This document shows, in pieces, positions 3,314 through 36,015 of a stretch of DNA of 64,000 nucleotides. A model generated the notes under the pieces. The model was not told the DNA's origin, made no database searches, and was given only the letters and a program-made list of their open reading frames with translations. The position numbers and the translations under genes were made by a program. The DNA comes from Deltaproteobacteria bacterium (lineage in GTDB: Bacteria > Desulfobacterota > SM23-61): the NCBI GenBank assembly GCA_016875165.1, contig VGSF01000002.1, positions 33,033-97,032 on the forward strand, read 5' to 3'. Each line of letters begins with the position of its first letter. Within the stretch, counting starts at the first letter, position 1.

Positions 3314-3385
3314 ATCCAACAAGTAAGGTTGTTTATCGTTTCAGTTTTTAGGGCGTGATTGAAATAAAAAATGGAGGAGAAAGAA

Positions 3386-4582: not shown

Positions 4583-4584
4583 AA

Positions 4585-5646: not shown

Positions 5647-5648
5647 AA

Positions 5649-5873
5649 ATGAGCGCAGAGACCAAAGAAAAAGTATTGGAATATCTTCGGGAAAAATCCA
5701 AAGGGGATAAGAAAAAATATTACGTGAAGGAAGTAGTGAAGGGGCTTCCCAATGAAGATCGCCATGCGATTCAAGATGCGGTGAAAGAACTGCTTGACGA
5801 GGGAACCCTGAAGTATTGGTCCAGCGGCAGCACCACGTATGTTATGCTCGCCGAATTTTTCCCAAAAGAGTAG
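5649..5873 (+). CDS. dsrD: DsrD (small winged-helix protein of dsr loci)
   Basis: 74 aa, beginning MSAETKEK directly after dsrB. Lys-rich KGDKKKYYVKEV and a YWSSGSTTY motif, both typical of DsrD. Confidence 0.8.
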   Translation: MSAETKEKVLEYLREKSKGDKKKYYVKEVVKGLPNEDRHAIQDAVKELLDEGTLKYWSSGSTTYVMLAEFFPKE

Positions 5874-5885
5874 CTTTATAAAATT

Positions 5886-7316: not shown

Positions 7317-7321
7317 GGGAA

Positions 7322-8140
7322 ATGGAAGACATCCGGGTAGCGGCAGTGGTGATGGAATCCAAAGTGGGGAAGAAAGCGGAGAACCTGGCCCGGATGGAAT
7401 CCTTTGTGCGCCGGGCAGCTGATCAAGGCGCGCAGATTGTCTGTTTCCCGGAACTGAACATCAGCGGGTACAGCCTGCGGCAAAATATGCTTTCCTTTGC
7501 CGAGAAAATACCCGGGCCAATCACCCAGGCGGTTTTGAAGATGGCCAGAGAGCACGGCCTTTTAATCCTGGCCGGGTTAGCAGAGGAAGGACCAGAAGGA
7601 AGATTTTTTATCAGCCATTTTGCGGCCAGCCCGGAGGGACTATTGGGGATTTACCGCAAGCTCCATTTAGGCCCACCGGAAGAAGGGGTTTATCAACCCG
7701 GCGGGGATTGGCCGGTTTTTCAATTTGCCGGATGTACATTTGGCATGGAACTCTGCTTCGACGCCCATTTTCCGGAGCTAAGCACGCTGCTGGCCCTGAA
7801 GGGCGCAGAGATTATTTTTATGCCCCACGCTTCGCCGCGGGAGACCCCCGCCGATAAAAAAGAGCGCTTCTTGCGTTATCTTACGGCGCGGGCTTATGAC
7901 AACAGCGCTTATGTAGTGGCCTGCAATCAAACGGGTGAGACGGAATCGGGTTTAGCTTTCCCGGGAACGGCCCTCATTTTAAATCCCCGGGGGGAAGTGA
8001 TGGCGGCGAACGGCGATGGCGGAGAAGAAATGATCTTTGCTGATCTTAAAGGAGCCGAGCTTAAAAAAGTGAGGGAGAATCCGCAAGGATTTTTTTTAAA
8101 AAGACGGCGTCCGGCCTTATATAAAGAACTGGCAGTTTAG
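7322..8140 (+). CDS. Carbon-nitrogen hydrolase (nitrilase superfamily) protein
   Basis: Likely start is MEDIRVAAVVME at 7322; the upstream part of the listed ORF overlaps dsrN. Has the CFPEL, RKLHL and MELCFD (catalytic Cys) pattern. Confidence 0.75.
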   Translation: MEDIRVAAVVMESKVGKKAENLARMESFVRRAADQGAQIVCFPELNISGYSLRQNMLSFAEKIPGPITQAVLKMAREHGLLILAGLAEEGPEGRFFISHFAASPEGLLGIYRKLHLGPPEEGVYQPGGDWPVFQFAGCTFGMELCFDAHFPELSTLLALKGAEIIFMPHASPRETPADKKERFLRYLTARAYDNSAYVVACNQTGETESGLAFPGTALILNPRGEVMAANGDGGEEMIFADLKGAELKKVRENPQGFFLKRRRPALYKELAV

Positions 8141-8149
8141 AGGGGAAAA

Positions 8150-8210
8150 CAGAAGCCAGAAGACAGAAGTCGGGAGTCAGAAGAAGTTATTCTAAATTCT
8201 GAGTTCTATG
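8150..8210. repeat. Degenerate (A/G)GTCAGAA-type short tandem repeat with inverted partner
   Basis: Sequence cagaagccagaagacagaagtcgggagtcagaagaag followed by ttctaaattctgagttct. Same type as the repeat at 59781-59910. Confidence 0.5.
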
Positions 8211-8248
8211 AAGGGCAATTATCAATAATCAATAGGCAATAATGATGG

Positions 8249-8378
8249 TTTCGTAAAAAATAAAGAAAGCCGTCACTCCCGCGAAAGCGGGAGTCCAGAA
8301 CTCCTTGAAATAACTGGATTCCGGCTTTCGCCGGAATGACGAATTATATTGAATTTCGACTTTTTACGAGTTCATCAA
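8249..8378. repeat. MITE with TIR TTCGTAAAAA...TTTTTACGAGTTCATCAA and nested palindromes
   Basis: The ends ggtttcgtaaaaaa ... cgactttttacgagttcatcaa are inverted repeats. The interior holds gtcactcccgcgaaagcgggagtc and attccggctttcgccggaat hairpins. Confidence 0.75.
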
Positions 8379-8413
8379 TGGTCAATTATCAATAGAAAGA
8401 GGAGGATTTCAGG

Positions 8414-8734
8414 ATGCCCATAATCGAATTAGCAGGAAAATCTTATGACGTGGATGAAGATGGTTTCCTTCAGGAATTAGACAAGTGGAACGAGGAGTTT
8501 GCCAAGGCTTATGCCAAAGAAGAAGGCATCGAAGGCACCTTAACCGAAGAGCACTGGAAGGTGATTAATTATTTAAGAAATTATTACCAGCAGTTCGGCA
8601 TTGCGCCGATGATCCGGAAGCTCTGTAAAGAAACCGGTTTTGACCTGAAAAAAATCTACCAGCTCTTTCCCTCGGGACCTGCCAAGGGGGCGTGCAAACT
8701 GGCCGGATTAGCCAAGCCTACAGGCTGCGTCTGA
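8414..8734 (+). CDS. dsrC: DsrC sulfur-carrier protein
   Basis: 106 aa. The C-terminal arm GACKLAGLAKPTGCV carries the two conserved Cys. RBS GAGGAGG lies upstream. Confidence 0.9.
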   Translation: MPIIELAGKSYDVDEDGFLQELDKWNEEFAKAYAKEEGIEGTLTEEHWKVINYLRNYYQQFGIAPMIRKLCKETGFDLKKIYQLFPSGPAKGACKLAGLAKPTGCV

Positions 8735-8753
8735 AACCAAGATTTTAAAAAAA

Positions 8754-8784
8754 GGGAGGCGGGATACTCCCGGCCTCTTTTCGA
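8754..8784 (+). terminator. Putative intrinsic terminator after dsrC
   Basis: gaggcggga-tac-tcccggcctc stem followed by tttt. Confidence 0.45.
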
Positions 8785-8877
8785 AAAGGCGCTGGTTTTT
8801 ACCCTTAAACGTTGGCCAGCCTTCCGGCGGATATAAAGGGGAATTTCCCTTTTTAATTTCCGGCTAAGAGGTTCAAG

Positions 8878-9300
8878 ATGAACCTGATGACCATTAGGCA
8901 CGAGAAAGGGCTATGCTTTTCGATCCAGGTGCGGGGGCACAGGTTTCTGATGGATATGCCCAGAGAGGCCAAAGGGGGAGATCGCGGACCATCTCCGGCT
9001 GATTTCCTGGCGGCGGCGTTGGGCGGCTGTATGGGAATGCATATGCTTCTGTATGGGCAAACCTCCGGCCTTTCCTGTGAGGGAATGGAGATGAACCTGG
9101 TTTACAACATCGTGGAGGAAAAAGGCCAGAAGAGGATTGGAGCCGTCACCGTGGATGTCTCTTTGCCCCAGGATCCGGGAGCGCGGGAGGCCGCTTTCCT
9201 TAGGGCGGCTCAGCATTGCATCATCCGGAACTCTCTTACGAAGGCTCCAGAAATAGATATAGCCATCACCGGGGGAGATGGTCAGGGAAGAAATTTCTGA
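8878..9300 (+). CDS. OsmC/Ohr-family protein
   Basis: 140 aa with a GPSPADFLAAALGGCMGM motif typical of the OsmC family. Confidence 0.7.
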   Translation: MNLMTIRHEKGLCFSIQVRGHRFLMDMPREAKGGDRGPSPADFLAAALGGCMGMHMLLYGQTSGLSCEGMEMNLVYNIVEEKGQKRIGAVTVDVSLPQDPGAREAAFLRAAQHCIIRNSLTKAPEIDIAITGGDGQGRNF

Positions 9301-9333
9301 AAGCGCAGGAATATCCTTTACCGGGAGATAGAA

Positions 9334-9861
9334 GTGGGCCTGAGGGGACTTTTATCGCAGAAAAAATTATCCATTCTGACAAAATGGTTCGATGAGGTTC
9401 TGAACTCCTACCCGACAGACTCCCAAATTTTTTTAAGAAAAACGGGAGATCGTTTTGCCAACCCGGTAGGCTCCACGATCCTTGAATCCCTTGAGGGGTT
9501 GTATGGAGAGCTGGTTGGGGGTATGGAGGAAGAAAAAGTTTTACCTTTTCTCAACCCCATCATCCAGATTCAGGCAGTTCAGCAAATTTCTCCCTCCCAG
9601 GCTATTTCCTTTATCCCCTCTCTCAAAAAAATCGTTAGCCTTGAGTTAAAAGATGAAATCCAGGGGAACCGCCTCTTTAAAGAGTTAAATGAATTTGACT
9701 CTGAGGTGGATCAATTAACCCTTCTTTCCTTCGATATGTACATGGTCTGCCGGGAGAAGATCAACGAAATCAAAATTAAAGAGCTGAAAAACAGACAGGA
9801 AGAAGTTTGGCAGAGAATAAATAAGACCTATGAGAAAAAAGCTGCGAGGGGAAGTGTATGA
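9334..9861 (+). CDS. Hypothetical protein, DsrT-like by position (RsbRD-N-like)
   Basis: 175-aa ORF (GTG start) directly upstream of dsrM. The assignment rests on synteny recalled for dsrT-dsrMKJOP loci, not on a clear motif. Confidence 0.45.
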   Translation: MGLRGLLSQKKLSILTKWFDEVLNSYPTDSQIFLRKTGDRFANPVGSTILESLEGLYGELVGGMEEEKVLPFLNPIIQIQAVQQISPSQAISFIPSLKKIVSLELKDEIQGNRLFKELNEFDSEVDQLTLLSFDMYMVCREKINEIKIKELKNRQEEVWQRINKTYEKKAARGSV

Positions 9862-9903
9862 ACGGTCGCCAGGACTTATTAAGGTGAAGCGGGAGAAGGC
9901 CTT

Positions 9904-10893
9904 ATGAATATATGGTTCCCCCTTTTGGCCGTGGCCATTCTTGTTCTGATACCTCTCGGGGGGGTGGGGGGGGCCAACTGGAGTTATCTTTTCGGAATCG
10001 TAATTCCCTATATAGCCTTTGGCGCGTTCCTTATCGGTTTTATATATCGCCTTGTCCAGTGGGGAAGGTCGCCAGTACCTTTCCGCATTCCCACAACCTG
10101 CGGGCAGCAGAAATCCTTGCCGTGGATCAAGACCAATTTTTTCGATAACCCCTACAATGGGGTGGGAGTGATCGGCAGGATGGCCCTGGAGGCCCTTCTG
10201 TTCCGTTCCTTGTTCCGGAACACGAAGATGGAATTAAAAGGAGAGCGGCCGGTTTATGGAGGGGCCAAATGGCTCTGGCTGGCCGGGCTGGTTTTTCACT
10301 GGTCCTTACTCTTTATCCTGCTTAGGCACCTGAGGTTTTTTCTCACACCAGCGCCGTTCTGGGTTGATCTGTTAGCAGGTATAGATGGTTTTTTTGAAAT
10401 CGGCGTGCCCACACTTTTCCTCACCGACGCCGCTATTATGCTGGCCGTGACTTACCTTTACTTAAGAAGAGTGGTCATCCCGCAGATACGTTATATCTCG
10501 CTCCCCTCGGACTATTTTCCCCTTTTGCTCATCCTGAGTGTGCTTCTTTCCGGTTTTCTCATGAGACACTTTTACAAAGTAGATATTCTTCGGGTGAAAG
10601 AACTGGTTAGCGGATGGATCAGTTTTTCTCCGGTCGCTGTGGAGGGAATTGGCCTTTCATTTTATGTCCATCTTTTTTTAGTCTCCGTTTTGTTGGCCTA
10701 TTTTCCCATGAGTAAATTGATGCACATGGGGGGTGTTTTTTTAAGCCCCACGAGAAACCTGGCCAACAACAGCCGCCTGCGCCGGCACGTCAATCCCTGG
10801 GATTACCCGGTTAAAGTGCACACCTACGAGGAATACGAGGACGAATTCCGGGAGAAGATGAAGGCGGCCGGATTGCCCGTGGATAAGGAGTAA
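9904..10893 (+). CDS. dsrM: DsrM, membrane heme-b subunit (NarI/HdrE-like)
   Basis: Multi-TM 329-aa protein heading the MKJOP block. Confidence 0.85.
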   Translation: MNIWFPLLAVAILVLIPLGGVGGANWSYLFGIVIPYIAFGAFLIGFIYRLVQWGRSPVPFRIPTTCGQQKSLPWIKTNFFDNPYNGVGVIGRMALEALLFRSLFRNTKMELKGERPVYGGAKWLWLAGLVFHWSLLFILLRHLRFFLTPAPFWVDLLAGIDGFFEIGVPTLFLTDAAIMLAVTYLYLRRVVIPQIRYISLPSDYFPLLLILSVLLSGFLMRHFYKVDILRVKELVSGWISFSPVAVEGIGLSFYVHLFLVSVLLAYFPMSKLMHMGGVFLSPTRNLANNSRLRRHVNPWDYPVKVHTYEEYEDEFREKMKAAGLPVDKE

Positions 10894-10895
10894 AG

Positions 10896-12518
10896 ATGTC
10901 CTTAGTGAAAGTTCTTAAACCAGATGAACTCGCCCGGATCGATTTTCGCCCGCCCCGAACAGGCTGGATGGACACTCCGGCAGAATTCAAGCCGGGCACC
11001 TGGTGCTACAGCGCGGCCCCTAAAAACCTTAAATACCTCGACCTCCCCAACCCCAGGGAGTGGCAGCCCCCCGATGCGGATTGGAAATTACCGGTAAACT
11101 GGAAAGAAATCATTTTGGGAGGATTCAAAGACCGGCTGGAGAAATACCGTTCTTTCCGTCTCTTTATGGACATTTGCGTCCGCTGTGGGGCTTGCGCAGA
11201 CAAATGCCATTTTTTCATAGGATCCGGCGACCCCAAGAATATGCCCGTTCTGCGGGCCGAACTCCTGCGCTCGATTTACCGCAGGTATTTCACGCCTTCC
11301 GGCAGGGTTCTGGGGAAACTCGCCGGAGCGAGGGATCTGACGGTCGAGGTTCTGAAAGAATGGTTCTACTATTTCTACCAGTGCACCGAATGCCGCCGCT
11401 GTTCGGTTTTTTGCCCTTACGGCATCGATCAGGCGGAGATCACCATGATCGGCCGGGAGCTCCTCAACCTGGTGGGCTGCAACATCAACTGGATCATTGA
11501 ACCGGCGGCAAATTGTTTCCGGACGGGAAATCATCTCGGCCTGCAACCGCACGGGATCAAAGACATGCTGGATTTTTTTGCCGACGATATCGAAGAGCGC
11601 ACCGGGATAAGGGTGGAGGTTCCCATCAACCGGAAAGGCGCTGAAATCCTTTTTGTTACGCCGTCCGGCGATCTCTTCGCCGACCCCGGCACTTTTACCT
11701 GCATGGGATACCTGATGCTCTTTCACGAGATCGGGCTGGATTATACCTTAAGCACCTACGCCTCCGAAGGGGGAAACTTCGGTTTATTCACATCCCACGA
11801 AATGATGAAGAGGCTTAATGCCAAGATCTACGCCGAAGCGAGAAGACTTAGAGTAAAATGGATTCTCGGGGGGGAATGCGGTCATATGTGGCGGGTCATC
11901 CATCAATACATGGACACCCTGAACGGTCCCGCTGATTTTCTGGAAGAGCCGGTCTCCCCGATCACAGGCGCGAAATTTGAAAACGCCAGAGCCACCAAGA
12001 TGGTCCATATTATGGAATTTACCGCCGACCTGATCCGGCATAAAAAATTGAAATTGGAACCAAGCAGGAATGACCACCTCCGGGTAACCTTCCACGACTC
12101 CTGCAATCCTTCCCGGGCCATGGGGTTATTTGAAGAACCACGCTATGTCATGCGGAACGTGTGCAATAACTTCTATGAGATGCCGGAAAACACCATCCGG
12201 GAGCAAACTTTTTGCTGCGGTGGAGGAGCCGGTCTGGGGACGGATGAAAACCTGGAAATGAGAATGAGAGGAGGCTTGCCCAGGGCCAAGGCCGTGAAGC
12301 ATGTCCATGAAAAACACGGAGTGAACCGGCTGGCCTGCATTTGCGCGATTGACCGGGCCACCCTGCATTCCCTGATGGAGTATTGGGTTCCGGAGGTAGG
12401 GGTTACCGGCGTTCATGAGATGGTGGCCAACGCTCTGGTAATGAAGGGAGAGAAGGAAAGGACCGCCGATCTGCGCGGGGAACCCCTTAAAGGCATGGAG
12501 ACATCCCCAAATGCATGA
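10896..12518 (+). CDS. dsrK: DsrK, HdrD-like iron-sulfur subunit
   Basis: CVRCGACADKCHF and CTECRRCSVFCPY clusters, plus CCG-type motifs FHDSCNPSR and TFCCGGGAG. Confidence 0.9.
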   Translation: MSLVKVLKPDELARIDFRPPRTGWMDTPAEFKPGTWCYSAAPKNLKYLDLPNPREWQPPDADWKLPVNWKEIILGGFKDRLEKYRSFRLFMDICVRCGACADKCHFFIGSGDPKNMPVLRAELLRSIYRRYFTPSGRVLGKLAGARDLTVEVLKEWFYYFYQCTECRRCSVFCPYGIDQAEITMIGRELLNLVGCNINWIIEPAANCFRTGNHLGLQPHGIKDMLDFFADDIEERTGIRVEVPINRKGAEILFVTPSGDLFADPGTFTCMGYLMLFHEIGLDYTLSTYASEGGNFGLFTSHEMMKRLNAKIYAEARRLRVKWILGGECGHMWRVIHQYMDTLNGPADFLEEPVSPITGAKFENARATKMVHIMEFTADLIRHKKLKLEPSRNDHLRVTFHDSCNPSRAMGLFEEPRYVMRNVCNNFYEMPENTIREQTFCCGGGAGLGTDENLEMRMRGGLPRAKAVKHVHEKHGVNRLACICAIDRATLHSLMEYWVPEVGVTGVHEMVANALVMKGEKERTADLRGEPLKGMETSPNA

Positions 12519-12909
12519 CACCCCAAAAATCATCGGCGGCGTCTTGATCTTTCTAACGTTGGTGACTTTTCCTTTTTGGTACGGGAAGGGGAAAACAGCT
12601 CCCCCTCCGCTCCTCCCTATCGATACCCCTGTGATTCAGAAGCTCACTGTAAAAAAATGTATAGAGCCAGCCGCTTATATGGCAGTCAGCCATATGGAAC
12701 TGCTCAATTCCTGGCGGGATGCCGTAGTCCGGGAGGGGAATCATCTGTATGTGAACCGCGAGGGAAAGAAATTTTCCATGAGTCTTTCCCAGACCTGTCT
12801 TAGCTGCCATTCCAATAAGGATAAATTTTGCGACGCCTGCCATGGTTACGCCGGGGTCAAACCGAATTGCTGGAGCTGCCACGTGGTCCCGAAGGAGGCT
12901 AAGCGATGA
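12511..12909 (+). CDS. dsrJ: DsrJ, triheme periplasmic cytochrome c
   Basis: Signal/TM N-terminus and three CxxCH motifs (CLSCH, CDACH, CWSCH). Overlaps the dsrK stop. Confidence 0.9.
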   Translation: MHDTPKIIGGVLIFLTLVTFPFWYGKGKTAPPPLLPIDTPVIQKLTVKKCIEPAAYMAVSHMELLNSWRDAVVREGNHLYVNREGKKFSMSLSQTCLSCHSNKDKFCDACHGYAGVKPNCWSCHVVPKEAKR

Positions 12910-13673
12910 ATCATAGCCGCCGCACCTTCTTGAAAATTATGGGTCTCTCTCTGGTGGGAGTCAGCATCAAACCAGGCTTTGAGGCTCTGGGGGGAGGTGA
13001 TTCCCCAAAAATCAGCCGCTATCCGGAGAGGTTGGTGGGCAAGAGGTGGGCCATGGCAGTCAGCCCCAAGAAATGTCCCAGCAGTTGCCGGGACTGTATC
13101 GAGGCCTGCCATCGAGCGCACAACGTTCCCGACTTTAAAAATTCCAAGGACGAGATTAAATGGATCTGGAACGAACCTTTCAGGAATGTATTTCCGGAAC
13201 AGGAACACGACTGTTTGACAGAAGGGTGGAGGCGAAAACAGGTTGTCGTTCTTTGCAACCATTGCGCCAACCCCCCCTGCGTCCGGGTATGTCCCACCAA
13301 AGCCACCTTCCAAAGAAAAGATGGCGTTGTGATGATGGATTACCATCGCTGCATCGGGTGCCGATTCTGCATTGCTGGATGTCCGTATGGGGCCAGATCC
13401 ATGAATTACCGGGATCCCCGCCCATTCATCAAAGAAATCAATCCTGGTTTTCCCACCCGCACCAAAGGTGTGGTGGAAAAATGTAATTTCTGCGAGGAAA
13501 GGTTGGCCAAAGGTCTTCTTCCCGCTTGCGTGGAAGGATGTAAAGAGAAGGCTCTGGTGTTTGGAGACCTGGAGAATCCAGAGGCTGAAATCCGGAAAAT
13601 CCTTCAAGCTCATTTCACCATCCGGCGAAAACCTGGGTTGGGTACTCGGCCCCAAGTTTATTATATCGTATGA
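12906..13673 (+). CDS. dsrO: DsrO, periplasmic 4Fe-4S ferredoxin subunit
   Basis: Tat-like SRRTFLK; Cys clusters CNHCANPPCVRVCP, CIGCRFCIAGCPY and CNFCEERL. Confidence 0.9.
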   Translation: MNHSRRTFLKIMGLSLVGVSIKPGFEALGGGDSPKISRYPERLVGKRWAMAVSPKKCPSSCRDCIEACHRAHNVPDFKNSKDEIKWIWNEPFRNVFPEQEHDCLTEGWRRKQVVVLCNHCANPPCVRVCPTKATFQRKDGVVMMDYHRCIGCRFCIAGCPYGARSMNYRDPRPFIKEINPGFPTRTKGVVEKCNFCEERLAKGLLPACVEGCKEKALVFGDLENPEAEIRKILQAHFTIRRKPGLGTRPQVYYIV

Positions 13674-13680
13674 GGAATTT

Positions 13681-14838
13681 ATGCTGGAAAAAGCATTAAG
13701 CGGAAATCGAAGATACTGGGGATGGGTGGGGTTTCTAATTTTCTTTATCGGGGTTGGATTTTTTTTCTACCTTCGCCAGTTAGATTATGGATTGGGCATC
13801 ACCGGAATGAGCCGGGATGTCACTTGGGCCCTCTATATCGCCCAATTCACTTTTTTGGTGGGAGTGGCCGCATCCGCGGTCATGGTGGTCCTTCCCTACT
13901 ATCTCCACGACTACAAAGTCTTCGGTAAAATCACCATCCTGGGAGAATTTCTGGCCGTTTCTTCTGTGGTCATGTGTCTGGCTTTTGTCATCGTAGACCT
14001 GGGGCAGCCAGCCCGAGCTTTTAACCTTTTGCTCTACCCTTCTCCCAGGTCCATCCTTTTCTGGGATATGATCGTTCTTAATGGCTATCTCTTACTCAAC
14101 ATAGTGATTGGGTGGACTGTGCTGGATGCGGAGAAAAAATCCATACCCCCGCCGAAATGGGTAAAGCCGCTGATTTACCTTTCGATCCCCTGGGCCATCA
14201 GCATACATACCGTGACGGCCTTCATCTATTCCGGCCTCCCCGGCCGAAGCTTCTGGATGACGGCCATCATGGCCCCCCGCTTTCTGGCCTCGGCTTTTGC
14301 TTCCGGGCCTGCTTTGTTGATCCTTCTCTGTTTTATCTTGAGGAAGTTCACCCGCTTCAATGCCGGAAATGAGGCGATTCAGGCTCTGGCCAAGATTGTC
14401 ACTTATGCCCTGTTCATCAGCGTTTTTTTCATCTTGATGGAAATTTTTACGGTATTTTACAGCCAGATTCCGGAGCACATGCACCATTTTATTTATTGCT
14501 TTGCCGGGCTTTATGGACACTATGGGCTGGTACCATGGATGTGGGCTTTTGTCGTTCTGGCCGCAGCGGCCATGATCCTCCTGGTTAACCCCCGGACCCG
14601 CCAGAACGAAACGCTATTGGGGGTGGCCTGTGTGGCCGTCTTTGCCTCTCTCTGGATCGAGAAGGGGCTTGGTTTGGTTGTGACCGGTTTCATCCCCTCG
14701 CCCCTGGAAAAAATTACGGAATATTCGCCCACGATGCCCGAAGTGCTCATCACCCTGGGAGTCTGGGCCGCAGGATTCTTGGCCCTTACCTTCCTTTACA
14801 AAATCGCTGTCACCGTTAAAGAAGAAATAGAGGCTTAG
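13681..14838 (+). CDS. dsrP: DsrP, NrfD/PsrC-like integral membrane subunit
   Basis: Start MLEKALSGN at 13681 follows a GAGGA RBS and the dsrO stop; the listed 13468 start lies inside dsrO. About 10 TM helices. Confidence 0.85.
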   Translation: MLEKALSGNRRYWGWVGFLIFFIGVGFFFYLRQLDYGLGITGMSRDVTWALYIAQFTFLVGVAASAVMVVLPYYLHDYKVFGKITILGEFLAVSSVVMCLAFVIVDLGQPARAFNLLLYPSPRSILFWDMIVLNGYLLLNIVIGWTVLDAEKKSIPPPKWVKPLIYLSIPWAISIHTVTAFIYSGLPGRSFWMTAIMAPRFLASAFASGPALLILLCFILRKFTRFNAGNEAIQALAKIVTYALFISVFFILMEIFTVFYSQIPEHMHHFIYCFAGLYGHYGLVPWMWAFVVLAAAAMILLVNPRTRQNETLLGVACVAVFASLWIEKGLGLVVTGFIPSPLEKITEYSPTMPEVLITLGVWAAGFLALTFLYKIAVTVKEEIEA

Positions 14839-22227: not shown

Positions 22228-22322
22228 TCCCCCTCCCCCCAACCCCCTCCCGCCAGGGGAGGGGAGATACTGGGGGATCCAAAATTCCCTCCCCCTGGAT
22301 GGGGGAGGGTTAGGGTGGGGGT
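22228..22322. repeat. G/C-tract nested palindrome repeat (CCCCTCCCC...GGGGAGGGG type)
   Basis: Sequence atccccctccccccaaccccctcccgccaggggagggg...ccctccccctggatgggggagggttagggtgggg. Confidence 0.6.
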
Positions 22323-28963: not shown

Positions 28964-29172
28964 ATGGGTATTCTGTCTAAAGTGACCCGCACCATCAAGG
29001 AAGGAGCCTTGGCCAGTGCGATGGCGACGACCCGGAAATTGACCGGAGGGTATGACATTGCCCTAAGGATCATCGCTGTCTCCTTCAGTGTTTTCTTTCT
29101 ATACACCACTTTCTTCGGATTGATCTCTCAGGAATCCCATATCGGCCTCTATTTCCTTGGAACCTTTGTGGT
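28964..29172 (+). pseudogene. N-terminal fragment of TRAP-T (TAXI-type) fused permease, truncated by the IS element
   Basis: RKLTGGYDIALRIIAVSFSVFFLYTTFFGLISQESHIGLYFLGTF matches TRAP 4TM/12TM permease N-termini. Homology ends at the left IR of the element (29173). Confidence 0.55.
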
Positions 29173-30249
29173 AAAAAGGGACGTTGTTCATTTGGTTCAG
29201 AAACTACTTGACAGGGAGAGAAAAAAGGATTAATGGAGGGGGATGCCACGGAAAGCGCGATTAGATGTCCCTGGGACCCTGCACCACGTCATGGTATGGG
29301 GGATAGAAGGAAGTAATATTTTCCGGGACGATGAAGATCGGAAGGCTTTTGTAGATAGGATCAGGTATTTGGCCAAAGAAACCGGAACCCGTATTCTGGC
29401 TTGGGCCCTAATGGGCAATCATGTTCATTTGTTGCTTGTTAGCGGGCCGGATGGCTTATCAACTTTTATGCGGCGACTATTGACTGCCTATGCTATTGGC
29501 TTTAATCGGAAACATCGTAGATTTGGGCACCTATTCCAAAACCGTTATAAATCCATCATCTGTGAGTTGGAACCGTACTTACTGGAGTTAGTCCGTTACA
29601 TTCATCTTAATCCGTTCCGGGCTGGGGTGGTGAAGAGCTTTGAAGAATTGGAGAATTATCCTTGGTGTGGTCATGGAGTCTTGACAGGCAGGCAGAGGAA
29701 TGATTGGCAGGAAAAGGATTTTGTGCTTGGTTTTTTGGGGTCTAGAGGAAAAAAAGCAGTTCGTGCTTATCGGGGATTCATGGAGGCCGGGAAATGTTTG
29801 GGACAGAGGTTGGAGTTGGTGGGTGGTGGATTGATTCGGAGTATGGGGGGTTGGTCCCAAGTTTTGTCTCTTCGGAATAGAGGTGAGAAGGAAGCTTATG
29901 ATGAGCGGATTTTAGGGGATGGGGATTTTGTTCAAGCTATTTTGGCGGAAGCGGATCAAAAGTTAGCTCGACAAATTCGAGCCCGAAAGAAAACCGGGTC
30001 GTTATCGATAATTATTAAAGAAAGGTGTCGGGAAGCTGGAGTCAATGAAGTTGAGCTAAGATCAGGGAGCAGGCGAATGGCCGTGTCGGAGCTGCGGAGG
30101 AGGCTTTGTTTTTATTTATATCGAGAGCTGGGTATGCCGATGGCTGAAATTGCTCGTCAAGTTGGGGTAGGGACAACAGGGGTGGCTATGGCTGTTAAAG
30201 AAGCAACGACAAGATAATAATTGAATGAAATGAACAACGTCCCCTTTTT
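29173..30249 (+). mobile_element. IS200/RAYT-like Y1-transposase element with ~21-bp terminal inverted repeats
   Basis: aaaaagggacgttgttcattt (29173-29193) is inverted at aaatgaacaacgtccccttttt (30228-30249). Contains a single transposase ORF. Confidence 0.75.
29243..30217 (+). CDS. Y1 (HUH) transposase, IS200-like / REP-associated tyrosine transposase family, with C-terminal DnaA-C-like HTH
   Basis: HUH motif GNHVHLL and catalytic-Tyr region FQNRYKS. The C-terminus AEIARQVGVGTTGVAMAVK is HTH-like. Confidence 0.8.
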   Translation: MPRKARLDVPGTLHHVMVWGIEGSNIFRDDEDRKAFVDRIRYLAKETGTRILAWALMGNHVHLLLVSGPDGLSTFMRRLLTAYAIGFNRKHRRFGHLFQNRYKSIICELEPYLLELVRYIHLNPFRAGVVKSFEELENYPWCGHGVLTGRQRNDWQEKDFVLGFLGSRGKKAVRAYRGFMEAGKCLGQRLELVGGGLIRSMGGWSQVLSLRNRGEKEAYDERILGDGDFVQAILAEADQKLARQIRARKKTGSLSIIIKERCREAGVNEVELRSGSRRMAVSELRRRLCFYLYRELGMPMAEIARQVGVGTTGVAMAVKEATTR

Positions 30250-30316
30250 CCCGAACAGCTCACCGGCGGCAATGGAGCGCAGCGGAATTGCCGTCCGGTA
30301 CAGCGCCTTGTTAGAC
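30250..30316 (-). other. attC site (canonical size, 67 bp) of the methyltransferase cassette
   Basis: Minus strand reads GTCTAAC-aaggcgctgt-accggAcggcaat-loop-attgccgccggt-gagct-GTTCGGG. There is a bulged base on the R''-proximal arm. Confidence 0.65.
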
Positions 30317-30330
30317 CATTCTTTATGCGT

Positions 30331-31317
30331 CTACTTTTTAAGCACATTTACTACCACACCATTGCTTCCATAGAAAACATCCACTTCTTTGTTCTCAGGT
30401 GAATCAACCATTTCCTTTACTTCTTCCAAAGTTTTTGGAGTATCATAAGTCGCACCTAAAGCATCAAAAGTGTCCATAATTGCCCATTCTAAACGCTGCT
30501 TTTTATTAAGACCAATGCCAATGTAATTCCAACACGGAATTGGGATTAACGCGACTATTCTGGAGCCAAGCTTGGGAATTCTCCGAATGGCTGTATCTAT
30601 TGGTAAATAAAGCGGAATATACGCCTCTATGATTTTCAGTAGTGTATCAGGATTCATTCGAGATGTAATTGGACGCCAAATATACTTTGGAGTCGACCAA
30701 GGCGTAGGAATTCTCATCTTCCTATAGTAGTCAATGGAAATCTTCCCCCCAGACCTAAGCTTTGAAAAAATAGCTCTATATGCTTCTGTTGGAACGGGCG
30801 TATGTTGTAAAACCCCGTAGCAAAATACGTAATCAAAAACGCCATCTGGAAATGGAATATCATAAAGATCGCCCTGAAAAATGAAAAGATCACCTTTATT
30901 TTTATTGTTATCATAGTTAGCAGTCACAGCATTGCTATAATCAAAACTGACAACTATTGCTCCGGCCTGTAATAGGATTTCAGTAAACCTTCCTGCGCCT
31001 GACCCAACCTCCAAAACAGTTTTCCCAGAAAGTTCTTCTGCCTTCCATTTTGTGTTAGACCAAAACCGTTGGGCTGTAAGAGGAATACCTGACGCACTAT
31101 CAAGTTGTGTGGATTTGAACTTGTTCCACTGCAAACCAAAATTATCAGCATAGTTTTCGGTGGAAATAAATCGAGGAATGCCCCCAACAATATCAACGGT
31201 CTTGTGCTTGACTCTTTTAGAAAGCAATTGACCACTAATTATGGTATCATTATTAATTTCTGTAGCTTTCAGCTCATAATCTTCCGCCAAGTACTTGTCA
31301 AAGTGTGTTCGTTTCAT
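30331..31317 (-). CDS. Class I SAM-dependent methyltransferase (integron cassette)
   Basis: Motif I VLEVGSGAGRFTE. The start MKRTHFDKY at 31317 is more likely, because the listed 31488 start runs into the attC-like repeat. Confidence 0.75.
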   Translation of the reverse strand: MKRTHFDKYLAEDYELKATEINNDTIISGQLLSKRVKHKTVDIVGGIPRFISTENYADNFGLQWNKFKSTQLDSASGIPLTAQRFWSNTKWKAEELSGKTVLEVGSGAGRFTEILLQAGAIVVSFDYSNAVTANYDNNKNKGDLFIFQGDLYDIPFPDGVFDYVFCYGVLQHTPVPTEAYRAIFSKLRSGGKISIDYYRKMRIPTPWSTPKYIWRPITSRMNPDTLLKIIEAYIPLYLPIDTAIRRIPKLGSRIVALIPIPCWNYIGIGLNKKQRLEWAIMDTFDALGATYDTPKTLEEVKEMVDSPENKEVDVFYGSNGVVVNVLKK

Positions 31318-31341
31318 GAGTATTCCTTTTTGAAGGTCTAA

Positions 31342-31635
31342 TGCGGAGTTGAGCAGTGCCCCGGAGGGGCATCTGTTCGAACTCCTTGTTCTCCCCGAGC
31401 GGAGCGAGGGGAAGGAGTTCGAACCCTGCTCAACTCCGCATTCCCCCCTCGCTTCGCTCGGGGGGAATGGGCCGGATGAGCGGCGCATTCGCGTCCGTTC
31501 GATCCGGGTTGATGGGCCGCGCTTCGCGGACCATCAACCCTCCGCTAATCCGGCCCAATGGCACGACGCGAAGCGTCGGGCCATCGCAAAAATCAGCGGT
31601 GGCTGTAAGCCATCCGCTGGAGTGACAGGTTATCT
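31342..31635 (-). repeat. Composite attC-like repeat (modules M1-M2-M3-M4)
   Basis: M1 is the palindrome aatgcggagttgagcag...ctgctcaactccgcatt. M2 is cccccc-N11-gggggg. M3 is gggccggatgagcgg...ccgctaatccggccc plus cgacgcgaagcgtcg. M4 is cagcgg-N15-ccgctgg next to the AGATAAC box. Confidence 0.7.
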
Positions 31636-31648
31636 GAATCCTTTCCCA

Positions 31649-32005
31649 TCAATAATTTATACTAATTTTCTCAGTAAACTTATTCAGGGTTTTATCGAGG
31701 GTCCAAAGGAGAACACTTGTTAATACAGCGGATGCAATCAGATGGACATCTATATAGCCTAACCCCTTTCCCATCAGTTGATTATTCTTAATGAATTTTA
31801 AGACTTCTTCATCTTCGGATAAAATCATCATTGGGAGGGATTGAAGATAGGTAAGGATTTCATGTCTATGCTTGAGATTCCCACAGGCAAGCTCTCCAAC
31901 AATAAATGGGTGGCATACAACTTCTCCGTCATATAGTAATTTCTGAAGTTCTTCATTTCCGTAACGCAGGTGAGAAACCCATACCGAGGTATCAACAAGA
32001 ACCAA
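31649..32005 (-). CDS. vapC: VapC PIN-domain toxin (cassette)
   Basis: MVLVDTSVWVSHL... with PIN acidic residues. Starts 1 nt after the vapB stop. Confidence 0.8.
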   Translation of the reverse strand: MVLVDTSVWVSHLRYGNEELQKLLYDGEVVCHPFIVGELACGNLKHRHEILTYLQSLPMMILSEDEEVLKFIKNNQLMGKGLGYIDVHLIASAVLTSVLLWTLDKTLNKFTEKISINY

Positions 32006-32006
32006 T

Positions 32007-32204
32007 TTATTTCTCTGCTATTCTCCGGCGCGGTATCATTTTCAGTTCCTTTTCCGTTCCGCCCAGTTTTGCAAGCCTCTTGCTGCTTTCCATTGCAATT
32101 AATGCCTCCAACCCAAGCTTGACAAGGGTTGTTTTTTCTTTGATACCTGTCAGCTTCGAAACCTTCTTGATTAGGTTGTCTTCGATGTTTAAGGTCGTCC
32201 TCAT
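32007..32204 (-). CDS. vapB: VapB-type antitoxin (cassette)
   Basis: MRTTLNIEDNLIKKVSKLTGIKEKTTLVKLGLEALI, with a GGAGG RBS before the ATG at 32204. Confidence 0.75.
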   Translation of the reverse strand: MRTTLNIEDNLIKKVSKLTGIKEKTTLVKLGLEALIAMESSKRLAKLGGTEKELKMIPRRRIAEK

Positions 32205-32273
32205 ATTAGCCTCCGAGAAATTTATATGTATCAATATGCACGATTCATGCATATTTTGTCAAGAAATTATTAA

Positions 32274-32345
32274 TGATAACGTGCCGCATCACCGGCCGGC
32301 GGAAGCGAAGCTGGAGCCGGTCCGTTGTGCATGCGGTTGTTATGC
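32274..32345 (-). other. Canonical 72-bp attC site
   Basis: Minus strand reads GCATAAC ... imperfect hairpin ... GTTATCA. Extra (bulged) bases sit on the R''-proximal arm, as in characterised attC sites. Confidence 0.7.
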
Positions 32346-32362
32346 CATGCTCTCTTTCGTGG

Positions 32363-32623
32363 CTACTTCAACTTCGCTCGGCACTGAAGCAGAAGTTCCT
32401 CGGCTTTTTCCTTGCCGAACGTCCTCACCATCTCTTCCCACATGGGCGATTTCCTGATGCTCTCCTGGAATTTCTTCGTCATTTCTTCCAATTGGTCTGG
32501 TGATGGCGCTGTTCCTGAGGAGAGAAGGTGCATCCCTTCATCGTCCATCCAGGTGAGTGGTGGGAGGGTTGGTGGGGTCGCAGCTCGATTGGCCTTCTTG
32601 GTTTTCTTTTTGATCTTTTTCAT
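32363..32623 (-). CDS. Hypothetical cassette protein (86 aa)
   Basis: ORF between the TTATGCC cassette start and its own attC. Lys-rich N-terminus, no family recognised. Confidence 0.45.
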   Translation of the reverse strand: MKKIKKKTKKANRAATPPTLPPLTWMDDEGMHLLSSGTAPSPDQLEEMTKKFQESIRKSPMWEEMVRTFGKEKAEELLLQCRAKLK

Positions 32624-32642
32624 ATCGTCGTTTCTGGCATAA

Positions 32643-32812
32643 TGCGGAGTTGAGCAGTGCCCCGGAGGGGCATCTGTTCGAACTCCTTGTTCTCCCCGAG
32701 CGGAGCGAGGGGAAGGAGTTCGATACGGCTCAACTCCGCATTCCCCCCGAGCGGAGCGAGGGGAAGGAGTTCGATACGGCTCAACTCCGCATTCCCCCCG
32801 AGCGGAGCGAGG
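32643..32812 (-). repeat. Composite repeat (M1 with internal partial duplication, plus M2)
   Basis: The segment ccccccgagcggagcgaggggaaggagttcgatacggctcaactccgcatt occurs twice in tandem. Confidence 0.7.
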
Positions 32813-32876
32813 GGGGAACGTTGCGCTTCAGCGGGGCGCTCTTTTTTTGCGTCCGACTGAAAGCGCTTGGTTATGC
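32813..32876 (-). other. Canonical-size attC (64 bp) of the 171-aa cassette
   Basis: Minus strand reads GCATAAC (overlapping the ORF stop) ... hairpin ... GTTCCCC. Confidence 0.6.
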
Positions 32877-33386
32877 ATAGATTTTTACAGCTTGATGAAA
32901 TTTGCCAAGCTTTTCATGGAACTGTTTTTGTTGACCCGTCGAGGGAAAAAAAACTACTACGCCGTTGTTTTGAACTGTGAATCCTAGTTGCTTCAATCGT
33001 GGCTCCAGAATCCTGCATATATTTGATTTTACCAATATAATCGGTATTTGTTTGCCTGCACATGCTTTTTCAAGGTCTTCTACTAAATTGCTAAAATCGC
33101 GTAGGATCACATCATTTCTTTTCTTCCCTTTTAGTTCATTAACAGGCTGGTATGTTGCGTCTAGAAGCAAATACCCTGCCTTTTGAAATAATTTGAGTCC
33201 TCCTTCTTTATTTTTTGCTGTAACACCCAACAGTTTCATCATTTCTGCGAAAAGTGGCTCAGATGTCTTCCCACTTTCGTCATAAAAATACAACCCCGAA
33301 GCTGGCGGAGATTCTAATACAAAAATATATCTTAAGTTGTCAGGAAGATATTTATTTCTATGATGTAGGTAATACTCTCTTTTCAT
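32871..33386 (-). CDS. Hypothetical cassette protein (171 aa)
   Basis: Clean ORF filling one cassette. It faintly resembles the uracil-DNA-glycosylase fold (VLESPPASG, LLDATYQP), but this is not secure. Confidence 0.5.
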   Translation of the reverse strand: MKREYYLHHRNKYLPDNLRYIFVLESPPASGLYFYDESGKTSEPLFAEMMKLLGVTAKNKEGGLKLFQKAGYLLLDATYQPVNELKGKKRNDVILRDFSNLVEDLEKACAGKQIPIILVKSNICRILEPRLKQLGFTVQNNGVVVFFPSTGQQKQFHEKLGKFHQAVKIYA

Positions 33387-33413
33387 GGCACCCCCAATTG
33401 ACTATGTGCATAA

Positions 33414-33583
33414 TGGGCCGGATGAGCGGCGCATTAGCGTCCGTTCGATCCGGGTTGATGGGCCGCGCTTCGCGGACCATCAACCCTCCGCTCATCCGGC
33501 CCAATGGCACGACGCGAAGCGTCGGGCCATCGCCGAAGCTCAGCGGCGTGCGTCAGCATGTCCGCTGGAGCGACTTGTTGGCT
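33414..33583 (-). repeat. Composite attC-like repeat (M3-M4)
   Basis: Same M3 and M4 modules as 31342-31635, without M1/M2. Bounded by AGCCAAC (minus) and ggcccA|TTATGCA. Confidence 0.7.
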
Positions 33584-33734
33584 TCAATTTTCTCGGAGGA
33601 AGACGGATGACTTTATGTCCAGAAGCGACCTGAACGGAACGTAGGTCGGCGCAAATCGCGGAGAGGTCGCCACGAAATTTTCGAGTATGCACCATTCGAT
33701 TCTTGCGCACTTCCTCAACAATTAAGTCCTTCAT
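33540..33734 (-). CDS. Hypothetical small protein, putative partner of the PIN-like gene (cassette)
   Basis: ATGA overlap with the upstream ORF. The C-terminus runs into the attC-like repeat. Confidence 0.45.
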   Translation of the reverse strand: MKDLIVEEVRKNRMVHTRKFRGDLSAICADLRSVQVASGHKVIRLPPRKLKPTSRSSGHADARR

Positions 33735-34213
33735 TTTTCAACCTCCAACAGTTCTTCAGGCGAGCAAATTTCAGGGCAGGCATATCCCTCGTTTTCGACA
33801 ATCTGTCTCACCATCCTTCGGGTGAAGGGGTTATTCAGGTGAGCAAAATTCCACGTGATGACAACCTCGATACCATTGACTGCCGCCACAGCAATATGAA
33901 GAGCGTCTTCTGGATATTGTGCAGGTATTCCCTTTTTGGCGATAATCTTTTCGGCGAGCATTCGCGCCTCGTCGTCAATGTCGAGCATAGGGAATGGCTC
34001 AATTGCCGCAAGCCTCATTTAGACTTGCTCTGAAGCCCCTCTTCTGGCTTCTTCAACAAAGACGAGTGCTGAAATGTAGGTTTCATATTTGGCAAGCAAC
34101 TTAGGCCAAAGCTCACGCGTGGCCTCTTGATGCCCAGCAACCATGATGTCGCGGCTCGGCTTGGCAGTGAGATAACTTACCACAGTGGTTTCAATGTATA
34201 GTCGTTTTTTCAT
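33731..34213 (-). pseudogene. PIN-like nuclease gene interrupted by an in-frame TAA
   Basis: MKKRLYIETTVVSYLTAKPSRD...GASEQV*MRLAAIE...DALHIAVAAVNGIEVVITWNFAHL reads as one PIN-like protein across the stop at 34019-34021. Confidence 0.55.
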
Positions 34214-34279
34214 AATCAGGTTATCAGATGTTTTAGATTTTCTCCCCAAAAAATCTTACATTCTTGCATAGAAAGCCAA

Positions 34280-34532
34280 TGCGGAGTTGAGCAGTGCCCC
34301 GGAGGGGCATCTGTTCGAACTCCTTGTTCTCCCCGAGCGGAACGAGGGGAAGGAGTTCGAACCCTGCTCAACTCCGCATTCCCCCCGAGCGAAGTGAGGG
34401 GGGAATGGGCCGGATGAGCGGCGCATTTGCGTCCGTTCGATCCGGGTTGATGGGCCGCGCTTCGCGGCCCATCAACCCTCCGCTCATCCGGCCCAATGGC
34501 ACGACGCGAAGCGTCGGGCCATCAAGTTATTC
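34280..34532 (-). repeat. Composite attC-like repeat (M1-M2-M3)
   Basis: Near-identical to the modules at 31342-31570. Bounded by GAATAAC (minus) and ccgcA|TTGGCTT. Confidence 0.7.
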
Positions 34533-34548
34533 TATGGTTTCTGTATAT

Positions 34549-34690
34549 CTCCGCATTCCCCCCCTCCGCTTCGCTCCGGGGGGAATGCGGCGCTGAGCGG
34601 TGTGTGCCTTGTCCACCCCTCCGCTCCGCCGCGGGGAGAACAAGGCACATGAGACGGATGCCCCTCCGGGGCACCGCTCAGCGCCGCAAT
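34549..34690. repeat. M2 plus a diverged M1-like palindrome, adjacent to the intI promoter region
   Basis: Sequence ctccgcattcccccctccgcttcgctccggggggaatgcggcgctgagcgg...ccgctcagcgccgcaat. Confidence 0.6.
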
Positions 34691-34799
34691 CCATTGGGTT
34701 GTAAAGTCTGCGCCCATGAGGAGATCACCTTTCTCATTGAATACCCGGTCTCTTAAAACCCCGGAAACCCATTAACTATCGAACATATTATATAATATC

Positions 34800-34828
34800 T
34801 TGACAAGTATTTTTCAACCCTTTATTCT
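34800..34828 (+). promoter_or_regulatory. Candidate sigma70 promoter for intI
   Basis: TTGACA (34800-34805), a 17-nt spacer, then TATTCT (34823-34828), about 55 nt upstream of the intI ATG. Confidence 0.35.
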
Positions 34829-34882
34829 TATCTTTCCGCATATCATGTCGTTATTAATGTTATCCCGAATGAAGGATCCCAC

Positions 34883-35543
34883 ATGCAGACTATCCCCTCG
34901 GCATTACAGGCAAGGTTTGAAGATCATTTACGGAGCAAAAGCATTCCAGAATCTTTGTTATGGCACTTTAAGAAATGGCTTCGTTATTATTTGGACTAAG
35001 GGTGTCGGCAACGACGCAAAACCAGGCGTTCAATTCCCTGTTATTCTTTTACCGCCACGTTTTGCATAAGGAATTCGGCCAGGTTGAAGGCGTCGTCCGA
35101 GCAAAACGAAAACCTTATATCCCTTTGGGTCATTGAAAGTGCTGCATCAGAACGACTTGCATCGCGGGTATGCCGGTGTATTCCTGGTAAATGCCCTGGA
35201 GCAAAAATACAAAAATGCGGCCGGGGAGTTTATCTGGCAATGGTTTTTCCCGGCCAAGCAGTTGACCTTCGATAGCAACGCAGGAGAATATCGTCGCTAT
35301 CATCTGCACGAAACCCATGTGCAACACGCCATCAAACAAGCGGTGGGCAAGGCAAGAATAACCAAGCGGGCAACGGCCCATACTTTTCGTCACAGTTTTG
35401 CCAGCCACCTGCTCCAGGACAACTATGACATCCGGACGATCCAGGAATTACTGGGGCATAGCGATGTCCGGACCACAATGATTTACACGCATACCGTAAA
35501 GAGCGTCACCATAAAGGACGCCAGAAGTCCGCTGGATTTTTGA
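34883..35543 (+). pseudogene. intI: Integron integrase with two internal deletions and frame changes
   Basis: Three fragments in three frames. Fragment 1: MQTIPSALQARFEDHLRS...WLRYYLD*. Fragment 2: VSATTQNQALNSLLFFYRHVL...[10 protein letters not shown]. Fragment 3: [21 protein letters not shown]...[12 protein letters not shown]...[15 protein letters not shown]. The IntI-specific insertion (ALExKY..W.W.FP) is present, but the segment with the first catalytic Arg is missing. Confidence 0.8.
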
Positions 35544-35677: not shown

Positions 35678-36015
35678 ATGGCAAGAGCAAAGCGGCATTA
35701 CATCCCGGGGTTTATCTGGCATATCACCCATCGTTGCCATGAACGGGAATTCCTCCCCAAATTTTCAAAGGATAGGCGTCGGTGGCTGCAGTGGTTGTAT
35801 AAAGCGAGGAAGCGATATGGTTTGACGATCTTGAACTATATGGCAACCTGCAATCACATCCACTTGCTTGTCGTTGATGATGGGGAAAAGGACATCATCC
35901 CCAATTCAACGCGATTAATGGCAAGACGAACTGGCCAGGAGTACAACTATGACGCGTGCCGGCGTGGTTAAACATCCGACGATGTGGCCATTTTGCGGTT
36001 AAAATGAGATCCAGG
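35678..36015 (+). pseudogene. Y1 (IS200/RAYT-like) transposase remnant with internal deletion
   Basis: MARAKRHYIPGFIWHITHRCHEREFL...CNHIHLLVV (HUH), then a jump to RAGVVKHP..WPF..NEIQ in another frame. Confidence 0.65.

Follow-up and report, generated by a model that had tools for sequence, protein, structure and literature searches.

A stretch of 64,000 nucleotides (nt) from contig VGSF01000002.1 of a Deltaproteobacteria bacterium (the window, with all coordinates given on its plus strand) was analysed at its full length. It contains a locus, between positions 30250 and 35543, that we regard with high confidence as a sedentary chromosomal integron with a dead integrase, in which mini-cassettes lacking an open reading frame (ORF) are carried as integron passengers. 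The array consists of 11 slots, namely five ordinary cassettes and the mini-cassettes, read on the minus strand away from the integrase gene intI. The integron itself is of a known, ordinary kind, and the mini-cassettes are the one unusual feature. A preliminary description of this DNA, made from its letters, had proposed an integron at this place; integrase models, a model of the attC recombination site and one mobile cassette all agree with that proposal.

Decay of the Integrase Gene

The intI-like remnant occupies positions 34883-35543 of the plus strand. It was mapped by tblastn with a 504-amino-acid (aa) IntI orthologue reconstructed from L035 (L001 to L118 designate comparison loci and contigs from metagenomes and genomes), and three collinear plus-strand fragments in three different frames were obtained. 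The first one (34883-34996) corresponds to reference residues 1-38, at the start of an N-terminal extension specific to the clade; the second one (34981-35127) to residues 241-289, at the end of the SAM-like domain; and the third one (35130-35540) to residues 368-504, comprising the IntI-specific additional domain and the C-terminal catalytic region. Residues 39-240 and 290-367 of the reference are missing through two internal deletions, the latter of which removed the first catalytic arginine box (LLYGCGLRLSE) and the HDGKGxKDR segment, and 224 of about 440 codons remain. Since the three fragments lie in three frames and are separated by two gaps, and intact orthologues occur elsewhere, intI of the window is a pseudogene. 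The decay of the integrase put forward in the preliminary description is thus upheld, with about half of the protein deleted.

The intact orthologues include proteins of 442 aa in Hydrosulfovibrio ferrireducens CB1MN and 444 aa in Desulfocicer vacuolatum DSM 3385, in both of which an N-terminal extension precedes the usual IntI start. IntI proteins of this clade (L035 1289-2798; L048 5389-6717; L085 232-1566) measure 442-504 aa and have an extra N-terminal domain with a KWLRYYLDFC motif followed by a variable linker, the extension amounting to about 130-200 aa. In the database, the 120 proteins most closely related to the C-terminal fragment all measure 121-238 aa; two of these short relatives, situated in longer contigs, were inspected and turned out to be shortened by frameshifts or a stop codon. 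An exact-sequence look-up of the 136-aa C-terminal fragment retrieved no record.

The assignment to IntI rather than to the Xer recombinases, which the preliminary description had left to be checked, is supported by profile comparisons. The 136-aa C-terminal ORF (35133-35543) scored 167.9 bits with the integron integrase model TIGR02249 (profile positions 181-313 of 315) and 84.6 bits with XerC. Xer models covered only residues 54-123 of this fragment, and its residues 1-55, the IntI-specific stretch before the catalytic core, were aligned by integron-integrase models only. In addition, a 53-aa ORF (34975-35136) matched positions 56-99 of TIGR02249, and also PF13495. A promoter-like sigma-70 site directed into intI (TTGACA-17-TATTCT; 34800..34828, plus strand) was recognised by a consensus scan only.

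attC Sites and Ordinary Cassettes

A covariance model of attC (R1) was built from 14 training sites, all of them from other loci. Its structure was made up of 12 hand-checked base pairs, namely those between AAC and GTT and those of an L box of 9 bp whose 5' arm carries a bulge of one base. When 12 attC sites were re-aligned with MAFFT no consensus structure emerged, and the 14-sequence alignment was used instead. An unfiltered search of the whole 64 kb on both strands returned exactly five matches with E <1e-4 (30.6-39.3 bits; E 3e-7 to 4e-5), at 33529-33583, 30254-30316, 32278-32345, 31583-31635 and 32817-32876, all on the minus strand, where every ORF cassette has one of them at its 3' end. 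The next-best match (22241-22315, minus strand; 14.4 bits, E 0.35) was non-significant and lay far from the array. As a control, 40 loci anchored on intI in named genomes were searched. All 27 matches fell on the strand opposite to intI, and 26 of them on its 5' side; one match (in L107) was a training sequence. The short sites that had been suspected of being attC were therefore recovered with a model of our own making.

Beginning at the intI end, the first ordinary cassette (33531..34279) contains a PIN gene (PF01850) and a 64-aa ORF (33540-33734), and ends in an attC at 33531-33583 (39.3 bits, E 3e-7). Both halves of the PIN gene (34019-34249 and 33731-34018) lie in one frame, interrupted by a single in-frame TAA (34019-34021). 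The next cassette (32819..33413; attC 32819-32876, 30.6 bits, E 3.9e-5) codes for a 171-aa protein (32871-33386) that has no family match in the domain models, and the following one (32280..32642; attC 32280-32345, 33.4 bits, E 8.3e-6) holds an 86-aa ORF (32363-32623), also without family match. They are followed by the vapB-vapC cassette (31585..32279; attC 31585-31635, 32.9 bits, E 1.1e-5), with vapB at 32007-32252 (PF09957) and vapC, coding for a PIN protein, at 31649-32005 (PF01850); a promoter-like site of vapBC itself was located at 32262-32233 by a simple sigma-70 scan. The last cassette (30256..31341; attC 30256-30316, 38.5 bits, E 4.6e-7) carries a gene for an S-adenosylmethionine (SAM)-dependent methyltransferase (30331-31320, PF08241). 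The 3' end of the R' box of this last attC is uncertain (30250-30256), adjoining the inverted repeat of a transposase-gene unit described below. All these ORFs are on the minus strand and read away from intI, as had been claimed. The preliminary description spoke of six blocks while naming five in its own list, and five is the right number. Its label of orphan for the 171-aa product does not apply, since at least 129 homologues exist and form a family of unknown function.

The ten boxes that bracket these cassettes were checked by direct reading of the window letters, and all are found at the positions originally reported (plus-strand coordinates): GTTAGACC at 30310-30317 with GGTCTAAT at 31335-31342, GTTATCT at 31629-31635 with TGATAAC at 32274-32280, GTTATGCC at 32339-32346 with GGCATAAT at 32636-32643, GTTATGCA at 32870-32877 with TGCATAAT at 33407-33414, and GTTGGCTT at 33577-33584 with AAGCCAAT at 34273-34280. 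The terminal T of the four boxes ending in AAT has to be reassigned, as it is part of an ORF-less mini-cassette and not of the preceding attC. Counted from the crossover, the start of each cassette is complementary to its own R'' box over 7, 7, 8, 5 and 7 uninterrupted bases, and in a five-by-five matrix of own and other partners the own R'' box gave the row maximum for all five cassettes, in accordance with the claimed pairing. Excluding the common TT, the complementarity comprises 24 matches at fixed places, for which the chance expectation is about 4^-24.

With both the R'' box and the full R' box counted in, the attC sites measure 57-72 nt; the known range is 57-141 nt, with extrahelical bases on the L''/R'' arm (PMC5027507). 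When the bottom strands (the plus strand of the window) were folded as DNA, the bulges came to lie on the L''/R'' arm (the 3' arm). DNA folding and the model alignment thus coincide on the arm to which the bulges had been assigned. In some canonical attC sites and cassette starts of other loci (L006 1218-1430; L002; L024), ATC/GAT replaces AAC/GTT, for instance in an R'' box GCCTATC with the cassette start G|ATAGGCC. The triplet held to be universally conserved therefore varies in this integron clade.

The attI Site

The attI core GGAGATATACAGAAACCATAGAATAACTTG is located at 34523..34552 on the minus strand and recurs beside intI genes of the same clade, at 23 distinct junctions in 22 loci. 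These junctions have in common a conserved core ending in GAATAACTTG|, and the sequences diverge directly past its final G. Since conservation of the core ends after this G, the attI crossover is placed between 34523 and 34522. The first slot after attI in the window starts with AT rather than TT, and arrays with the same attI carry entirely different first cassettes. In L001, a second copy of a region of about 170 nt around attI, 85-90% identical to the first and about 1650 nt away from it, was observed within the array, where it follows immediately on the attC that ends a cassette for a 399-aa protein; this arrangement resembles a cassette ending in an attI-type site.

Mobility of the 171-aa Cassette

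A protein 87% identical to the 171-aa product is encoded on contigs L116 and L117, which come from two of the same four JGI samples (3300020084, 3300020109, 3300020220 and 3300020221) as the contigs of the strain studied here. On these contigs the homologue belongs to another integron, of which it is the first cassette; the intI of that integron is apparently without interruption, is cut by the contig end and is co-oriented with the cassettes. At the nucleotide level the window and L116 are 88% identical over 599 nt (window 33413-32816). The predicted cassette runs from 33413 to 32819, so its 5' end is exact to the base and the alignment overshoots its 3' end only through a shared TTC. The flanks differ on both sides: upstream there is the end of a mini-cassette in the window and the integron's own attI in L116, and downstream a mini-cassette in the window and a LysE cassette in L116. 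Independent mobility, the property by which the preliminary description proposed to judge the ORF blocks, was accordingly found at the predicted boundaries for one of the five cassettes. Elsewhere, one cassette is common to L009 and a Desulfobacteraceae metagenome-assembled genome (MAG). The array of L118 that includes a homologue of the 171-aa protein also contains a gene for a group II intron reverse transcriptase (RVT_1 and GIIM domains; 5790-6941), which may belong to an attC-targeting group II intron.

Mini-Cassettes in the Window

Three junctions between the ordinary cassettes (31342-31635, 32643-32876 and 33414-33583), together with the stretch that leads up to attI (34280-34522), extend beyond the length of an attC and consist of repeated modules. 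Read in gene orientation, the three junctions have a complete attC ending in G, then one or two units, and then TTRRRY of the next cassette. The preliminary description, with its five or six blocks, had not recognised the units contained in these long junctions, which are not long attC sites. Each of them is instead a canonical attC of 57-72 nt plus one or two ORF-less mini-cassettes, and the array amounts to the 11 slots mentioned above.

Two families were distinguished. Mini-cassettes of family A (126-176 nt) are composed of a C hairpin and an A module, following the plan TTCCCCCC, 11-13 nt, GGGGGGAA(C/T), a module of about 100 nt, and a final G or A. Those of family B (117 nt) are composed of a D hairpin and a B module, with the plan ATGGCCCGACGC-TTC-GCGTCGTGCCATT, a module of about 88 nt, and a final A. 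The first slot after attI is a family B unit (34406..34522; fold -58.5 kcal/mol, z -11.1), followed by a family A unit with an A1 module (34280..34405; -48.9 kcal/mol, z -9.4). Farther along the minus strand there are a B unit at 33414..33530, an A unit with an internal 51-nt tandem duplication at 32643..32818, a B unit at 31468..31584 and an A unit at 31342..31467. A further copy, of subfamily A2, is inverted (34556..34688, plus strand; -48.5 kcal/mol, z -7.2) and sits with the attI core on one side and the promoter region of intI on the other. No copy of the A or B modules was found outside the array in the rest of the 64 kb.

The mini-cassettes thus measure 117-176 nt, have no ORF and carry a cargo of 3-13 nt, and each of them is essentially an attC-like site alone. 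The A and B modules share the attC layout of R'', 5 nt, L'', followed by L', 5 nt, R'. In the A module the R'' side reads GGGGAA(C/T), spacer GCGGC and L'' GCTGAGCGG, and the R' side reads L' CCGCTCAGC, spacer GCCGC and R' (G/A)TT. The arms of both modules are perfectly paired through the spacer, with neither extrahelical bases nor an unpaired spacer, and have a three-way junction at the tip. In an integrated mini-cassette, the cassette start and the R'' box form a small hairpin, owing to the cargo of merely 3-13 nt. A scan of the junctions against Rfam gave one sub-threshold GA-cis match (E 0.71) and nothing else, a tRNA scan of the junctions found none, and a sigma-70 consensus scan found no promoter-like sequence in the mini-cassettes.

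Mini-Cassettes in Other Integrons

The exact 26-base pattern of the A module was found in 27 loci across many metagenomes; all 20 of those searched with R1 have attC matches. An exact-pattern scan of 185,579 species-representative genomes gave no match to the A module, which indicates that this set lacks the source genome and its close relatives; a diverged mini-cassette copy is present in a Thermodesulfovibrionales MAG. Many junctions in the A loci consist of an attC without a unit, i.e. units are present at some junctions only. Their position is always the same, after the G of an attC or attI and before TTRRRY of the next cassette. Of the 23 distinct attI junctions, 9 have a mini-cassette in the first slot, these including A-like and B-like variants of different sequence in L073 and L040. 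The A and B units fold with -48.5 to -58.5 kcal/mol (z -7 to -11), and further compensatory changes between the two A subfamilies are found in the outer stem.

The junctions bear on the way in which the units were inserted. In 20 of 20 distinct copies there is covariation between the base that ends the unit (G or A) and position 3 of its R'' box (C or T), and the left junction retains the G of the preceding site even where the unit ends in A. This covariation and the retained G are as predicted by a single-strand exchange between bases 1 and 2 of R', and they place the crossover at the integron position. Two other modes of insertion were considered and rejected: a target-site duplication (GTT...GTT), since the junction bases on the two sides are not the same in units with a final A, and an IS200/IS605-type insertion 3' of a fixed tetranucleotide, since the left flanks have the final G alone in common. 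In L006 a canonical attC has an inverted unit in its R'' box, precisely at AA|C, which is the outcome expected of top-strand recombination. This inversion is consistent with reports that attC sites without extrahelical bases still recombine but lose strand selectivity (PMC5027507). Separately, a short perfect hairpin similar to D also starts some ORF-bearing cassettes (L014 4463-4510; L058 after attI), so D-like starts are not confined to ORF-less units.

Proposed Mechanism and Alternative Explanations

As the first catalytic arginine region is gone from intI, the array would be unable to recombine by itself, and movement of its cassettes would need an integrase supplied in trans. The anatomy of the junctions suggests recombination of the mini-cassettes by IntI at R'. 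An integron integrase would have placed them at G|TT, either in attI or in the attC before them, and they would behave as self-propagating passengers of integrons; they may in addition be of use to the array, acting for instance as insulators or as stabilisers of RNA. Lacking bulges, they would have a weak strand selectivity, which would account for the inverted copies. A bolder version, in which the mini-cassette families are widespread autonomous "attC-only" elements that parasitise integrons of many phyla, seems to us quite unlikely. In it, almost wholly self-complementary circles of about 120 nt would recombine without AAC, bulges or an unpaired spacer, and by landing beside genes they could supply attC sites for the birth of new cassettes. 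If the integrase of this clade moves the mini-cassettes, they would constitute a natural test of the minimal requirements of integron integrases and an example of selfish DNA living inside integrons. They lack the three unpaired features that experiments are said to have linked with the control of efficiency and orientation, and they are nonetheless situated at exact crossovers in dozens of arrays, often first after attI.

Several observations weigh against the interpretation as an integron with passenger mini-cassettes. With regard to the integron, the five cassettes of the window show no presence/absence variation among four near-identical contigs, the four that carry the 171-aa protein being of the same strain (99.96-99.99% identity). 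R1 is a home-made model and not the attC model of IntegronFinder, and a simple sigma-70 scan identified no cassette promoter Pc, giving only the intI-directed site and that of vapBC. As for the mini-cassettes, the copies of the window carry AAT/ATT (family A) or ATT/AAT (family B). To our knowledge, all described attC sites have AAC/GTT, the one sequence conserved throughout; A-family copies in other loci do have AAC/GTT. The A and B modules reach 13.7 bits (E 0.5) on R1, and genes for RAYT-like (repetitive extragenic palindrome-associated tyrosine transposase) Y1 enzymes recur beside arrays (in the window, L014 and L027).

The last point gives some substance to another origin of the A and B modules, as repeats of the repetitive extragenic palindrome (REP), bacterial interspersed mosaic element (BIME) or miniature inverted-repeat transposable element type, spread by RAYT-like Y1 (HUH) transposases and merely accumulating in a hairpin-rich array. 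RAYT-like genes are located at both ends of the locus (29243-30217 and, truncated, 35678-35971), similar genes border the arrays in L014 and L027, and Y1 transposases work on single-stranded hairpins. This origin is nevertheless very unlikely: the remaining 59 kb or so of the window contain no modules, all insertions are at integron crossovers and have no target tetranucleotide in common, the covariation of the terminal base is in keeping with strand exchange in integrons, and the 30-bp inverted repeats of the RAYT-like gene itself are unrelated to A or B. We judge it unlikely, though to a lesser degree, that the modules are structured RNAs in the 5' leaders of cassette genes (regulators, stabilisers or attenuators) whose placement reflects their function in the transcript. 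The modules precede start codons by 15-40 nt, compensatory changes are seen in their helices, and gene-less cassettes with regulatory (promoter) roles are known. However, Rfam offers nothing beyond the sub-threshold match, the exact crossover boundaries and the inverted copies point to movement at the DNA level, and a folded single-stranded DNA site predicts the covariation equally well. A leader role is compatible, as an added function, with insertion of the mini-cassettes by an integron integrase.

Two further explanations concern the array as a whole. Each long junction might be one composite long attC with an elaborate terminal structure, which would leave five or six cassettes only; attC repeats that are long and conserved can occur in chromosomal integrons, and those modules that lie in the window are always contiguous with a canonical site. 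We consider this highly improbable, since modules also occur directly after attI without a canonical attC, canonical sites stand alone at 32280-32345, at 30256-30316 and at many junctions elsewhere, the combinations vary (A only, B only, B plus A), the canonical part, having a G|TT of its own, is complete, and junctions of 178-300 nt are above the known 57-141 nt (PMC5027507). Finally, the locus might not be an integron at all, with a decayed Xer- or phage-type recombinase lying beside small genes separated by palindromes. The recombinase does survive in fragments, and its catalytic end is also matched by Xer models, but IntI models score double and span the IntI-specific domain, the attI core is a conserved one, the attC model gives five matches of correct polarity, cassette starts are complementary to their own R'' boxes, and one cassette is held in common with another integron at exact boundaries. 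Such a reading is hardly credible.

Genomic Context

The RAYT-like gene beyond the last cassette (29243-30217) codes for a Y1 transposase of 324 aa with a DnaA-C-like helix-turn-helix, and has inverted repeats at both ends (29170-29199 and 30222-30251, 30 bp, 87% complementary); the unit so delimited (29170-30251) adjoins the last attC with a gap of about 4 nt. The second, truncated RAYT-like ORF (35678-35971, 97 aa) lies just past the 3' end of intI. In the same-strain contigs L028 and L030 the homology with the window stops at about 29527, where an IS21 element (rve and IstB) follows in L028 and the contig ends in L030.

Genes similar to dsrA and dsrB, to that of cobyrinic acid diamide synthase, and for Fer4/NrfD proteins (dsrMKJOP-like) occupy positions 3371-14838. 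The dsr genes are thus about 25 kb off, and the statement in the preliminary description that the integron is next to the dsr locus does not hold. The presence of an integron in a genome resembling those of sulfate reducers is not noteworthy either. A scan of species-representative genomes found at least 599 confirmed relatives of this IntI, the best 80 of which belong mostly to Desulfobacteraceae, Syntrophobacteraceae, Desulfocapsaceae, anammox bacteria and Nitrospirota and include cultured isolates; the clade is common in Desulfobacterota, which are already listed as hosts (PMC8618304). Four other repeat families, each dispersed in the window in two copies (81-93% identity), have no relation to the integron modules. 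They lie at 17023-17272/22681-22930, 38479-38743/56703-56968, 42057-42200/63857-64000 and 49373-49514/52414-52560, and two of the families contain C-run/G-run hairpins.

Comparison With Known Systems

Inactivated integron integrases are well documented, and Desulfobacterota are among the listed integron hosts (PMC8618304). The locus resembles sedentary integrons with an inactivated intI, such as those of Xanthomonas, in its chromosomal site, the divergent arrangement of intI and array, and its species-typical attC sites, as well as in having cassettes for toxin-antitoxin systems and proteins of unknown function and an array frozen by a disabled integrase (PMC8618304). It differs from them in that its IntI belongs to a clade with an N-terminal extension of about 130-200 aa that is common in Desulfobacterota, anammox bacteria and Nitrospirota, and in that half of its slots are ORF-less. 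As regards attC-only cassettes with fully paired stems and non-AAC triplets, no description was found in the literature, our coverage of which was incomplete.

Repeats of the REP/BIME type with their RAYTs are similar to the modules in being short, GC-rich and highly structured and in occurring near Y1 transposase genes, whereas the modules are not dispersed, are found at integron crossovers only, and are much larger and branched. The engineered bulge-free attC sites of Nivina et al. (2016) have fully paired stems like those described here. Two of these, derived from attCoxa2 and attCaadA7, recombine efficiently and lose the preference for the bottom strand (PMC5027507), and this loss matches the natural inverted copies at 34556-34688 of the window and in L006. 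Those sites are laboratory mutants and substrates of IntI1, whereas the present units are natural, have no unpaired central spacer and have a large three-way-junction tip.

Non-coding paralogous cassettes are already known from Vibrio, and are like the mini-cassettes in having no ORF, in occurring in several copies per array and in being highly conserved in nucleotide sequence across hosts. For the gene-less cassettes of Vibrio, Boucher et al. (2006) discussed both a selfish element and a helper of the array (PMC1382264), and promoter activity has been reported for cassettes that lack a gene (bioRxiv 10.1101/2023.11.21.568050). In contrast to the Vibrio cassettes, the present units consist of the recombination site alone, with a cargo of 3-13 nt and full pairing; those of the window are without AAC and without detectable promoter-like sequence, and mini-cassettes are often the first unit after attI.

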